From Myxococcota bacterium (GTDB lineage Bacteria; UBA10199; JACPAL01; GCA-016699445): a DNA stretch of 64,000 nucleotides. This document shows positions 18,023 to 21,650 of the stretch, piece by piece. Location of the stretch: contig JBPOJN010000020.1 of NCBI GenBank assembly GCA_052033505.1, positions 7,888 through 71,887 on the forward strand, read 5' to 3'. Made by a program: the position numbers and the translations under genes. The notes under the pieces are model-generated. The model was not told the DNA's origin and searched no databases. It saw only the letters and a program-made list of their open reading frames with translations. The first letter of the stretch is position 1. Each line of letters opens with the position of its first letter.

Positions 18023-18063
18023 ATCCTTACAAGATCATTTCCAGCGGAAGCACCAACTCTCTG

Positions 18064-18649
18064 TCATTTAAAATGCGAATATCCTTCCCCGGATGAAGAT
18101 ACACGAGCTTCGCTTCCTTGTTTTTGGAAAGAAAAGAAGCCGCGCTGCGCGAGGCGCCCAAGGGAGGATGCGACTCCTGCAGGCACAAAAATCCGAGCGC
18201 CTTGCCCAGGGCCCGGAAGACGAACGGGACATAAGCGCCGCCCTGTTGTCAGTGCCTGGCAAATTGCAAATCGTCTTTTCCAATTTGCCAGGATCGTCGT
18301 CTTCGACATCCCCCGTGCGTAAAGGCGTTCCAGAAACTCGAAACCGGTTTTTACAACCACACCATCCCGCGTCAAAACGAAGGGGATTTTGTCATGGGGA
18401 ATGGCTTTCCAAGTTTCCATGCGGGCCGGTGTAGGCCCACAGAAGCAGTACAAGCAAACGAGTTTGTTTTGCAAACCGGGAGGGGTTCCGATGACCGTCG
18501 CGGTGAACGTCCTCGTTTTTCCCTTTCCAGAGCTTTTGACAGGATAGGTTTTGTTTTCGCTTGCAGTCAGGACCGCCACAGGTTTTCTGACGATTCCCAA
18601 GTCGGGGGTGGGGATAGAACACGATGGGGCACCAGGCGCATTGTCTCAT
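18064..18649 (-). pseudogene. Frameshifted Zn-ribbon plus HTH gene, possible IS/transposase N-terminal remnant
   Basis: Two overlapping minus-strand ORFs in different frames (18392-18649 with a CxxC...CxxxxC ribbon; 18064-18600 ending in an IS-type HTH ...GMSKTTILANWKRRFA). No catalytic domain follows, as purC abuts. A 12-bp perfect inverted repeat lies inside (18255-18292). Confidence 0.35.
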
Positions 18650-18759
18650 GCCTGGATGTTCGACACATCATCCGAGGTGGGCCCTGATGACTCGATCCTT
18701 AAAAAGCCGGAAAAACTTTTTTCACCGTTGGGTGACCGATTTCGCAACTTATTCTAAAT

Positions 18760-21219
18760 TTGAACGAAAACGTAGCTATGCGTATCACTCAGGATAACGC
18801 TTCAGCCTTACAACAGCTTCTTGGTCTGCCATCAGAGCGTTTCCCGGTAGGTGGAACCATGACCGTTGGACCTTCTCCGAACTCTTCGGGATTCTTCACA
18901 GGTGGGCATACCCATACCATTGTCATCTCCGATCCTGCGCAACAGAAATACTTTCATCTTTTCACAAGAGACAATGCCGTTGTCATTGAAGACAGTCCTG
19001 CTGCTAACAGACCTCCCTACATGGTGCCTGTACGTGGTTTGGAGATGGTTTTTAACATCTTGCATGATAATCCGGATGCCTCGGCAGAACGGCTTGGCGT
19101 TTTGTTGGCTGAAGCAGCTTCTGCGGTTATTAAAATTCCTGGCGATGACAGCGTAGCAGAATTGGAACATAGAGCCATTGCTGGTGAAAAGATCCCCATA
19201 ATCAATTGGCCCCTTGTAAAACAGGCTATCATGAAAGCTCTTGAGCTTGAGACATGGCCGAAGCGAATCCTCTTGTATACTACGAGAGAGCAATGGGCCC
19301 AGTCTTGTGCTAATTATGTGGAGTTTTCTTTGAAAGGAGAAAGAAATGGACCGAGGTTTCTACTAAATCTTGAGGGGCGGCATGAATCGTCTTTTAGTAA
19401 TCCGATAGGGGCAGGATATGATCTGATAGGGGCAACGATAACACAATCAGAGGAGGATTTGGCAGAACGCTACGAAAGACTTACTAGACCATTTAGCTCG
19501 ACTGACGCTATGGAGGGTCAAAAATTCCTGCTTGAAAGAGCTGAAGCGAAATTGAATTTTCTGAAGAGTTTATCCAGTGATGACCCTAAAAACTCCAGTT
19601 TGGTAATTTTTCTTTACCGTCAAGGGGCCCCTGAATTTACAGCCGCAAGCTCTAGAACGCGTGGGGACCTAACGAATAATCCGAAAGAGATTATTTTGAC
19701 CGTAGGTCCACAGACAATCGAGAATCCACCCAGTGATAAAATTCCCATACTAAACCTAGACCACATAGAGGGACGAGAAATCCAGTCACCCCCATTACAC
19801 CATGGGGAGGAGCTCCGACGTCTTATCACACTATTGACGCCTATGCGTGTTACCTTCTCATCAGAAGCTCCTGCATGGAGCCTCATCACTGCAATTCGCA
19901 GAATCTTTGTTCCAAACGCTGATATTTTGACACAGGAAGATATTTTGTATTCTTCTTTCAAAGATCCATCGATGAGAGAAGAATGCCTTCGAAGATGGGC
20001 AGAAGAACCTCAAGAGACAAGACAGCGGGTAGTTCGTGTGATGTTGGGACAAATCAGACCTCCAAAAGGCAAGATGGACGCAAGCGGCGCCGAGGTATTC
20101 GCTAAATTCGTATTGAATTTGACAGAACTTGATCCCAGCTGCCTTTCTCCAGAAGATCTCGACGACACAAAAAAGATATTAGTCGTATTTTTTCAAAAAA
20201 AGATTTCAGAATATTTATCATCCTCAGAAAGGGGTGCCCCAAGTTTTACACCAGGATGGATGGGCGACTTCGTGTCTGAGTATCCTTATTTTGCTCCATT
20301 TCAAGAAGAACTCTTTCCCATTTATAAATTCGCCGCAGAAACGGCTGTAGAAGGTTATCTAAACCCTCATCCGGATGTAGCACGTTATTTAAACCCTCAT
20401 CCGGAGGCACGTCAAAATCGCCTGCAAAAAGTGTGGAAAATTTTGAAGAAGACCGGAACAGCAGGAGTCGATATTGCCGCTCTTGCAAAAAGTATCCAAT
20501 CGGCAGCCCCTGATGAATGCCTCGCCTTAGAAAAACCGGATGAATTTAACAAGGTTCTGTCTCCACTTCGATTACGGGTCGCGGAAGCCAAAAAAATGTC
20601 TCTCCAAAGAGAGCTCGATCGGATTGTAGGCTCAGAGGAGTTTTTGAGGGTATACGCGGAAGCTCAAGATTTGAGGATTCTTCAATCAATCCTTGGGATG
20701 GGGCCTGTTAATAAAGCAGAAACTACCACACCACCTCCTCAACCGCCCGCTTCTTTGGAAGATGTTCCCTCGCCGAAGGTAGCCCGCCTTCCCAGGCCTC
20801 TAAAAGCCGCTTTTAGAAAAGCACTACACTTATTGAACGCACGGCCGAACGCCTCTACTAGTAGAGACGTTCAACTCGAGCTGCGAAGCCTCTCGATTGC
20901 TTATGATAAGGCTGTGAGGACGGAGAGTTCGGATGCATTACGACGTCTTCGGGAAGAGATCCAAAGAGTCATCGGCATTGAAACAACCTCTCTCGAAGAA
21001 CGGCTTAGAGAAACCGAAGCCGAAATCGAAAGAATACAAGGGGAGCGTTCGCGGGCGATCCAAGGCAAAATTATGAGCCAAAATATAATCGCTCGAAAAT
21101 ATGACATCATTAAATCTGTCCGAGAAAAACTGGCGATACCACATGATGGTTCTGAAGACCTTCTGCTAGGTCTTCGGGAAATGTTCGATAGCTTATTAAG
21201 AAAATTTGGAATTGTTTGA
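18760..21219 (+). CDS. Large hypothetical protein (819 aa), low-GC orphan
   Basis: Continuous ORF with ~43-46% GC against ~60% flanks. No NTP-binding or catalytic motif seen. Internal tandem YLNPHPDVAR/YLNPHPEAR repeat; coiled-coil C-terminus. Confidence 0.55.
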   Translation: MNENVAMRITQDNASALQQLLGLPSERFPVGGTMTVGPSPNSSGFFTGGHTHTIVISDPAQQKYFHLFTRDNAVVIEDSPAANRPPYMVPVRGLEMVFNILHDNPDASAERLGVLLAEAASAVIKIPGDDSVAELEHRAIAGEKIPIINWPLVKQAIMKALELETWPKRILLYTTREQWAQSCANYVEFSLKGERNGPRFLLNLEGRHESSFSNPIGAGYDLIGATITQSEEDLAERYERLTRPFSSTDAMEGQKFLLERAEAKLNFLKSLSSDDPKNSSLVIFLYRQGAPEFTAASSRTRGDLTNNPKEIILTVGPQTIENPPSDKIPILNLDHIEGREIQSPPLHHGEELRRLITLLTPMRVTFSSEAPAWSLITAIRRIFVPNADILTQEDILYSSFKDPSMREECLRRWAEEPQETRQRVVRVMLGQIRPPKGKMDASGAEVFAKFVLNLTELDPSCLSPEDLDDTKKILVVFFQKKISEYLSSSERGAPSFTPGWMGDFVSEYPYFAPFQEELFPIYKFAAETAVEGYLNPHPDVARYLNPHPEARQNRLQKVWKILKKTGTAGVDIAALAKSIQSAAPDECLALEKPDEFNKVLSPLRLRVAEAKKMSLQRELDRIVGSEEFLRVYAEAQDLRILQSILGMGPVNKAETTTPPPQPPASLEDVPSPKVARLPRPLKAAFRKALHLLNARPNASTSRDVQLELRSLSIAYDKAVRTESSDALRRLREEIQRVIGIETTSLEERLRETEAEIERIQGERSRAIQGKIMSQNIIARKYDIIKSVREKLAIPHDGSEDLLLGLREMFDSLLRKFGIV

Positions 21220-21626
21220 ACGATGCTTCTCCAGCCGGGCTAGATCCGTACGTTCCTGGACCGCGACGGTTGTGGAATCCGCCTTCTTTGCTGGCCATGG
21301 AACCGCTTTATGGACGGAGGCTCCAAGACTTAAGCGAATCGGAAAGGACTGAACTCTTCCGTCAAGCGCTTCTCGATCGCAAACCGCAGGATCTTACCGA
21401 CGTTATTCGGAACATGGGAACCATTCGCGATACGGAAGCGTTCGGCCGCATCGGAGGCCTCCTGGAAGAAATGATTCGCGAGGAGGATCCTCTACAGGCT
21501 CTGGAAACGATCTATCCGCGACTTTCGGATTACGGTTTTTGCTTGCAGGATTGCTATATCAAAGTCGTGCTCATGTTCAGTACTTGGCAGGGGACGAAAA
21601 AGAGTTTTGGCCAAGTCGGGCGTTGA
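21216..21626 (+). CDS. Hypothetical protein (start overlaps upstream stop, ATGA)
   Basis: 136-aa ORF, 4-nt overlap with the 819-aa gene; no motif. Confidence 0.35.
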   Translation: MNDASPAGLDPYVPGPRRLWNPPSLLAMEPLYGRRLQDLSESERTELFRQALLDRKPQDLTDVIRNMGTIRDTEAFGRIGGLLEEMIREEDPLQALETIYPRLSDYGFCLQDCYIKVVLMFSTWQGTKKSFGQVGR

Positions 21627-21650
21627 CATTATCATTATAATGATAATACT
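21623..21650 (+). promoter_or_regulatory. Promoter with perfect 20-bp palindromic operator for the phd-parE operon
   Basis: TTGACA at 21623-28 followed by ATTATCATTATAATGATAAT (21628-21647), a perfect palindrome containing a TATAAT-like box, 12 nt upstream of the antitoxin start. Confidence 0.55.

Follow-up and report, generated by a model that had tools for sequence, protein, structure and literature searches.

A probable mosaic variable segment carrying a rare orphan gene between purC and pbpC of a Myxococcota bacterium

We found the interval from purC to pbpC to be ~4.2 kb longer in the window, the whole 64,000-nucleotide stretch of Myxococcota DNA analyzed here, than in the closest available genome (L002), where a spacer of only about 40–60 bp lies between the two genes. 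The extra DNA occupies 18023–22234, the Phd/ParE genes included (Table 1). We consider it probable, at roughly 60%, that it represents an ordinary, small mosaic variable segment interrupting a conserved backbone, which is ordered in L002 as purC, pbpC, alpha-2-macroglobulin (A2M), a cobalamin (B12) riboswitch and a homologue of the orphan gene found at 38465–39631 of the window. Its main cargo would be ORF819, an accessory gene standing alone and probably gained by horizontal transfer, from a donor that we infer to have had a lower GC content. The segment thereby offers a clear-cut case of an indel within the conserved purC–pbpC–A2M backbone.

An extra segment in the purC–pbpC backbone

Deviating composition, together with absence from the same backbone position in L002, places 18023–22234 among genomic islets and supports the horizontal acquisition that the original prediction had proposed for it. 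About 50 bp directly 3′ of the purC stop are still alignable to the L002 spacer. Within the segment, GC content differs by gene (ORF819, 45.7%; ORF136, 53%; phd, 58%; parE, 50%), and because of this heterogeneity the segment was either not acquired as one block or has been partly ameliorated. We infer that the indel arose by insertion rather than deletion; purC–pbpC adjacency is kept in none of the outgroups (L003, L004, L005 and L078), so that a deletion in L002 is also conceivable. Missing close relatives constitute weak evidence here, sampling of this lineage being so thin that, clustered at 90% identity, purC and pbpC are themselves singletons in the protein collection.

In its sub-genome GC, its absence from a conserved junction in the nearest relative, its lack of a detectable function and its patchy distribution, the segment resembles small genomic islets with ORFan genes, which are reportedly horizontally acquired, AT-richer and fast-evolving accessory genes. 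It differs from such islets in having borders without a mobility gene, tRNA or direct repeats: we detected no tRNA within the window, no border direct repeats or flanking repeat pair in a repeat search of 15500–23500, and no recombinase or integrase domain among the islet ORFs. Rfam gave zero matches across 17900–22300. The pbpC and A2M genes that had been predicted to follow the unit are both present downstream, with Transgly, Transpeptidase and BiPBP_C domains followed by MG2, A2M and bMG10 domains, as in the pbpC–alpha-2-macroglobulin operon, and the pair is conserved with L002. Bacterial A2M is said to occur together with penicillin-binding protein 1C. Here, however, the pair is backbone outside the islet and says nothing on the function of ORF819.

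Table 1. Features of the purC–pbpC interval and its flanks, in window coordinates
Feature	Position	Strand	Remarks
purC (SAICAR synthetase)	17144–18022	+	Left backbone flank; 87% identity to L002
Stretch without called gene, 737 bp	18023–18759	.	Between purC and ORF819; no gene call there in the Logan contig
178-aa ORF	18064–18600	-	Three-frame translation; other frame, overlapping the 85-aa ORF
16-bp inverted repeat (hairpin)	18255–18292	.	MFE -26.9 kcal/mol, z = -4.5; no T-run after
85-aa CxxC...CxxxxC ORF	18392–18649	-	Three-frame translation; sequence absent from protein collection
ORF819	18760–21219	+	819 aa from TTG start; gene callers start at ATG 18778, giving 813 aa (P0001)
30-bp tandem duplication	20342–20371 and 20372–20401	+	87% identical; source of the YLNPHPDVAR/YLNPHPEAR repeat
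ORF136, 136 aa	21216–21626	+	TTG start; 4-nt overlap with ORF819 stop
Promoter-like site TTGACA-16-AATACT + palindrome	21623–21650	+	Just upstream of phd
Phd/YefM antitoxin	21659–21919	+	PF02604, 48.7 bits (cut-off 29.8); within the segment absent from L002
ParE toxin	21916–22221	+	PF05016, 66 bits (cut-off 23); 4-nt overlap with phd; ends 13 bp before pbpC
pbpC	22235–24316	+	Right backbone flank; 60% identity to L002
Alpha-2-macroglobulin (A2M), 2045 aa	24325–30462	+	Right backbone flank after pbpC; 54% identity to L002

ORF819 and its family

The 819-aa low-GC orphan of the original prediction was recovered as described. Its 45.7% GC compares with 54.9% for the whole window, its GC3 is 0.39 versus 0.67–0.72 in purC, pbpC and A2M (~0.68 being host-like), and it is the strongest deviator in codon usage, ranking first of the 40 window genes (B = 0.577). 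We regard ORF819 as a real gene, because a 2.46-kb open frame at 46% GC is beyond chance, its codon positions follow the pattern GC1 > GC2 > GC3, and distant homologues exist. No domain match was obtained in Pfam, NCBIfam, PADLOC, PHROGs or PDB sequences. The predicted YLNPHPDVAR/YLNPHPEAR tandem repeat is likewise present and stems from a short DNA duplication (Table 1); the homologues carry this unit in single copy.

Exhaustive searching with HMMER across 1.84 billion cluster representatives returned five homologues (P0002–P0006; 21–30% identity, E 2e-10 to 5e-4), bringing the family to six proteins in total, with the closest homologue only about 26–29% identical to ORF819. At E ≤ 0.001 there was no further homologue anywhere in the library, hence none in purC-clade relatives. 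Word-indexed searches with ORF819, ORF136 and the family alignment retrieved only the query itself or nothing, viral contigs, plasmids and phages held no ORF819 match, and JGI metagenome contigs yielded nothing for the ORF819 family or the ORF136 C-terminus, the six-sequence alignment being too divergent as a seed. The family is tiny and fast-evolving, and no two of its members share a genomic neighbourhood. It is now documented as an uncharacterized and very rare protein family, which matters little as things stand, and no current evidence sets ORF819 apart from the many Pfam-less orphans of the same genome.

ORF819 comprises a unique N-terminal extension (1–140), an α/β region (~150–345), a helical domain (348–590), a Pro-rich linker (645–678) and a basic helical tail (679–819), and the family alignment covers it from ~140 to 819. 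AF2 produced an unusable model from the single sequence (pLDDT 40) and a mediocre one with the six-sequence family alignment (mean pLDDT 54), in which the helical domain reached a pLDDT of 70–90. Of the coiled-coil tail that had been proposed, the long predicted helices are there (679–815; Arg-rich, pI 9.8), but the coiled coil itself is weak by a crude heptad test. We detected no signal peptide, hydrophobic N-terminus or membrane segment in ORF819 (maximum Kyte–Doolittle 1.07), and it contains no recognizable catalytic motif or eukaryote-like domain. The D-P-P-H ... E-x-E-x-R motif of the family α/β region is lost in ORF819 according to the alignment; its interpretation as PD-(D/E)xK or helicase motif II was disfavoured by the predicted β-α-β topology, the missing P-loop and the loss of these residues in ORF819. 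Fold searches with the model, advocated earlier as a route to the function of the 819-aa protein, retrieved generic helical matches only. The family profile matched a de novo TIM barrel alone among PDB sequences (E = 0.0017), which we judged compositional. Negative results and predicted architecture together would be consistent with a non-enzymatic binding or scaffold protein, whose basic Arg-rich tail may make contacts with nucleic acid or serve in oligomerization, and whose most plausible biological setting would be inter-genomic conflict or niche adaptation.

Alternative readings of the segment and its genes

ORF819 could instead be native and restricted to its lineage, with weak selection and AT-biased mutation behind its low GC and with the segment lost from L002 by deletion; we take this seriously while considering it unlikely. 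Such a history would agree with the lack of integration signatures at the segment and with a second difference from L002, 7.8 kb at 30463–38260 carrying housekeeping-type genes, which suggests that indels and rearrangements are frequent here. It would also agree with homologues whose GC3 is only slightly lower than that of their neighbours, in L082 (0.67 vs 0.70–0.76), L085 (0.44 vs 0.48–0.57) and L089 (0.41 vs 0.44–0.53). Yet a GC3 below that of the neighbours is shared by all five homologues, which favours acquisition, and the other large Pfam-less orphans in the window, similar in size, have fully host-like codon usage (B 0.17–0.25, GC3 0.66–0.70), so orphan status alone cannot account for a GC3 of 0.39 versus 0.68, and the distance of the nearest homologue, with none further for purC-clade relatives, also argues against a native origin. 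That ORF819 is an effector, exported independently of a Sec signal and used on another cell by a host-associated or predatory bacterium, appears improbable. In favour are the large size, helical make-up and fast evolution of this orphan, its Pro-rich linker and lack of an enzymatic motif, the location of one homologue in a low-GC patch beside an ankyrin-repeat protein, and the presence of a Fic-domain gene in the window. Against it, a signal peptide, a membrane segment and a eukaryote-like domain are all missing from ORF819, and the scanned window genes included none of a secretion system. We would give little more than an outside chance to the six-member family being an unrecognized single-gene conflict module (defence or anti-host/anti-prey effector) that moves horizontally among uncultured lineages labelled deltaproteobacteria, in which the α/β region with its D-P-P-H ... 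E-x-E-x-R motif would be active or sensing and variable N- and C-terminal extensions, including the basic tail of ORF819, would set specificity. If so, the family would extend the list of single-gene systems by one, from a lineage that has been little studied.

The original prediction joined ORF819 and ORF136 into a novel two-gene system for anti-phage defence, or of toxin/immunity type, in a defence island, a reading that we now hold to be highly unlikely. Its attraction lies in the overlap between the ORF819 stop and the ORF136 TTG with no terminator-like site between them, in the atypical composition and the toxin–antitoxin modules at both sides, and in a fast-evolving, patchy ORF819 family, as is common for conflict genes. 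The codon-overlapped 136-aa ORF does exist, but the two gene-calling pipelines (NCBI and Logan) accept only its last 70 aa (21414–21626), a frame that begins 195 nt after the ORF819 stop, and conservation elsewhere is limited to the last ~45 aa. The pair is not adjacent at any other locus compared: an ORF136 relative or shared neighbour was found at 0/5 homologue loci, and the sole ORF136 relative, a C-terminal one, follows MazEF in L078 with no ORF819 homologue nearby. Because the five homologues are monocistronic and lie in unrelated contexts with no flanking ORF in common, ORF819 and ORF136 do not form a conserved system; we read ORF136, whose product is more likely only 70 aa long, as an independent small gene and not the partner of ORF819. 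Neither ORF matched a defence model in PADLOC-DB 2.0. Within the family, the same models gave a 12-bit ZorA match for P0006 and an 18-bit DrmD match for P0004, the latter dismissed as spurious given its score, its location in the C-terminal helices and its occurrence in one of the six members. No known defence genes adjoin the homologues, whose neighbours matched generic ABC/P-loop ATPases (an ABC-ATPase beside ileS and weak P-loop matches in an L082 neighbour) and, in an L090 neighbour, a Cas8e model at 19 bits. The proposed defence island thus finds no convincing PADLOC match in the pair, the ORF819 family or the homologue neighbours. Likeness to defence islands and PADLOC-catalogued systems extends to the general setting of a variable region with toxin–antitoxin genes, whereas a model match, conserved gene pair or defence neighbours occur at 0/6 loci. 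A defence or effector role of ORF819 is conceivable, the one observation pointing to it being the adjacency of toxin–antitoxin modules, of a kind that any variable region commonly has. It is also very unlikely that 18027–18650 is what remains of an insertion sequence (IS) that brought the islet. This stretch is situated at the left margin of the extra segment, and its 85-aa ORF recalls the N-terminal Zn-ribbon/HTH regions of IS transposases in its Cys4-like spacing (CxxC...CxxxxC) and basic stretch, with a possible helix-turn-helix segment coming after it in the second frame. Unlike those regions, however, the 85-aa and 178-aa ORFs show no homology to a transposase or IS-associated family (no match at E ≤ 1 in Pfam, NCBIfam, PADLOC or PHROGs, zero tblastn matches in 72,556 plasmids and 50,697 phages, and viral contigs equally devoid of relatives), lack a catalytic domain and have flat codon-position GC. 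No terminal inverted repeats surround 18027–18650; the only strong inverted repeat in 15500–23500 is the internal hairpin, whose 16-bp arms are the only two in 64 kb, and no second copy of the stretch was found within the window or 90 loci. With no known family, terminal repeats or gene call, the claimed IS-like transposase remnant was not upheld; the 737-bp stretch could represent either a gene in decay or an extended leader and is not identifiable as IS-derived. The useful outcome is therefore negative: as neither the proposed two-gene system nor the IS remnant holds, the pair is not worth effort as a unit.

Toxin–antitoxin genes

The original prediction had the unit bounded by two toxin–antitoxin modules, BrnT/BrnA and Phd/ParE. 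Both exceed their Pfam cut-offs, but neither marks a border in the way envisaged. BrnT/BrnA lies upstream of purC, where L002 has a similar pair in opposite orientation, and for these reasons belongs to the neighbourhood and not to an islet border; Phd/ParE lies inside the segment. Compared with type II toxin–antitoxin modules known as stabilizers or markers of variable regions, both are overlapping gene pairs above cut-off, and Phd/ParE sits within the extra segment, whereas BrnT/BrnA is outside the islet and has a similar counterpart in L002. Judged by its sequence, Phd/ParE qualifies as a type II module, with adjacent and overlapping genes, domains above cut-offs and the antitoxin first. 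The site upstream of phd is likely to be its autoregulated promoter, and Phd/ParE would then act as an independent addiction module with a promoter of its own, one that may help the segment persist.

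Composition of the purC–pbpC segment

The segment between purC and pbpC is a mosaic islet of an ordinary kind. Its lineage is very poorly sampled, with even PurC a singleton at 90% identity. The sequence observations behind the original prediction were largely right: the ORFs, the low GC of the 819-aa one, the toxin-antitoxin (TA) pairs, pbpC and the alpha-2-macroglobulin (A2M) gene are all present (table). BrnT/BrnA lies upstream of purC, and both TA pairs score well over the Pfam cut-offs. Between BrnA and purC we also noted a protein of 108 aa that carries two CxxC pairs and is hydrophobic in its middle segment; it has no Pfam match and is not present in the nearest available genome (locus L002).

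Features of the window discussed here
Feature	Position	Strand	Remark
Redox domain cluster	9825-13587	-
108-aa protein	16772-17098	-
purC	17144-18022	+
Stretch without called gene	18023-18759		737 bp
Inverted repeat	18255-18292		16 bp, unique
ORF819	18760-21219	+	819 aa from TTG; public calls start at ATG 18778 (813 aa)
ORF136	21216-21626	+	136 aa, TTG start; 4-nt overlap with ORF819 stop
Phd	21659-21919
ParE	21916-22221
pbpC	22235-24316
A2M	24325-30462		2045 aa
Second segment absent from L002	30463-38260		~7.8 kb
221-aa orphan	30640-31305	-
Cobalamin riboswitch	38261-38440	+	74.5 bits
Three genes after riboswitch	38465-41766
Fic_N + Fic + SoFic-like_C protein	61879-62973	+

The large orphan ORF819 has a GC3 of 0.39, compared with 0.67-0.72 in purC, pbpC, A2M and MqnA-like genes, and it ranks top for codon-usage deviation (B = 0.577) among 40 non-overlapping window genes, despite being among the longest. 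Other large window proteins without a Pfam match (5287-7173, 48903-50861 and 56833-59028) have fully host-like codon usage (B 0.17-0.25, GC3 0.66-0.70), so that domainless proteins are normal in this lineage; the composition of ORF819, unlike its absence of domains, is not. Along the extra segment GC is mixed (ORF819 45.7%, ORF136 53%, phd 58%, parE 50%), and the segment is therefore mosaic. The second-ranking codon-usage outlier is a 221-aa orphan directly after A2M (B = 0.537, GC3 0.44) with no match in Pfam or PADLOC, which is probably another acquired gene. The window's only other low-GC patch (62001-63000, GC 0.44) holds a Fic-domain protein.

ORF819 and its proposed partner

A word-indexed search of 5.8 billion clusters returned only ORF819 itself, and exhaustive phmmer against 1.84 billion representatives found five relatives (E 2e-10 to 5e-4, 23-30% identity, 452-574 aa), aligning from residue ~140 to the end. 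The N-terminal extension of 140 aa is unique to ORF819, which also carries insertions and has a longer tail than its relatives, and its YLNPHP repeat is a 30-bp duplication found in ORF819 alone. The closest relative (P0003) is split by a scaffold gap, a run of N at 10956-11148 of its locus L090, with GATGACGCC standing on both sides; its true length is probably ~515 aa, versus 452 aa on record. No family member matches Pfam, NCBIfam, PHROGs or PDB sequences. The only PADLOC matches, DrmD at 18 bits (C-terminal helices of one member) and ZorA at 12 bits (another member), were judged to be noise.

All five homologues are monocistronic, divergent from the upstream and convergent with the downstream gene, and they sit in five unrelated neighbourhoods: a MacAB-like ABC system; ileS with an ABC-ATPase; an ECF sigma operon with MscL and an ankyrin protein; hrcA-grpE-dnaK; and VapBC-type modules with a TonB receptor. 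When all ORFs of 40 aa or more from these flanks and from the window were compared with one another, only the ORF819 family itself proved to be shared, and the flanking proteins gave no convincing defence match. Homologue GC3 is below that of the neighbours in 5/5 loci, slightly in three and strongly in two, a pattern consistent with an accessory gene of patchy distribution and occasional transfer. One homologue, P0006, lies in a low-GC3 patch (L088 1-8000) together with the ECF sigma operon, several orphans and the ankyrin-repeat protein; farther along that locus, housekeeping-type genes have a GC3 of about 0.85.

A search of the large database found no homologue of ORF136, and NCBI/Logan gene calls recognize only a 70-aa protein from 21414. 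Over its last ~45 aa, ORF136 shares 58% identity with a 54-aa ORF of CP064976.1 (locus L078), which has no ORF819 relative nearby; a metagenome scan with both sequences yielded nothing further. On these results ORF136 is a separate small gene rather than a conserved partner. With no shared neighbour in the five homologue loci and an ORF136 relative that occurs without ORF819, the two-gene system proposed for the pair is unsupported, as is the defence-island reading. The 54-aa ORF stands directly after an RHH antitoxin/MazF pair (L078 8260-9106 for this cluster), 0.9 kb upstream of purC, so that a small gene of this type adjoins a TA module near purC in two genomes.

AF2 modelling with the six-sequence alignment gave ORF819 a mean pLDDT of 54, with a helical domain at residues 348-590 (pLDDT 70-90), a β-α-β type region at 150-345 (pLDDT 50-68) and the N-terminal extension unmodelled. 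Fold searches returned only generic helical matches, and no membrane segment was found. Residues 645-678 are 26% proline and precede an Arg-rich helical tail (679-819, pI 9.8). The four shorter homologues have D-P-P-H ... E-x-E-x-R in the α/β region in common; ORF819 has G-P-Q-T ... N-x-D-x-I at these positions. ORF819 was presumably acquired as a stand-alone accessory gene, and its product may best be seen as having a non-enzymatic role in binding or scaffolding, with a basic tail that could oligomerise or bind nucleic acid. It might also act in conflict, although nothing supports this.

Insertion or deletion relative to the nearest genome

A PurC scan over one genome per species identified CAZWYB010000006.1 (L002; 87% PurC identity) as nearest. 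There, ~40-60 bp separate purC from pbpC, followed by A2M (pbpC 60% and A2M 54% identical to the window's), and further along the two genomes have in common a cobalamin riboswitch and an orphan gene that is homologous between them. Relative to this backbone, the purC-pbpC interval of the window is longer by 4.2 kb, and Phd/ParE lies within the additional DNA. About 50 bp 3' of the purC stop still align to the L002 spacer, which puts the left edge of the segment at about 18065. Neither a tRNA nor an integrase was found, and no repeats mark the borders. The difference could reflect insertion in the window lineage or deletion in L002. Composition favours insertion, yet this is not proven, since purC-pbpC adjacency is not kept in more distant relatives. 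The atypical ORF819 composition and the absence of the segment from the L002 junction nevertheless make the predicted acquired islet a reasonable description.

Its supposed IS remnant did not hold up. The minus strand at 18027-18650 contains an 85-aa ORF with CxxC-x16-C-x4-C and a 178-aa ORF in another frame; neither these nor a frameshift-corrected reconstruction matched families, plasmids, phages or viral contigs. The Logan contig has no gene called here, the 85-aa sequence is missing from the protein collection, and codon-position GC is flat. An inverted repeat within the stretch (RNA fold -26.9 kcal/mol, z = -4.5) is followed by no T-run on either strand. The stretch may represent a gene in decay, or else a structured leader.

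A second difference, between A2M and the riboswitch, is present only in the window and carries the 221-aa orphan, an RNA methyltransferase (PF04452), MgtE, a photolyase, a 211-aa ORF and an M20 peptidase. L002 keeps the riboswitch right after A2M (19762-19951), along with the first downstream gene. Two of the three genes that follow the riboswitch in the window lack a Pfam match, and for the third (39628-40680) the sole match, to Big_2, is weak and below threshold; together they may form a hitherto uncharacterised operon for B12-related uptake or binding. Elsewhere in the window, a VKOR-thioredoxin/DsbA fusion adjoins a DsbH-type thioredoxin/GlcNAc-2-epimerase-like protein, forming a thiol-disulfide domain cluster.
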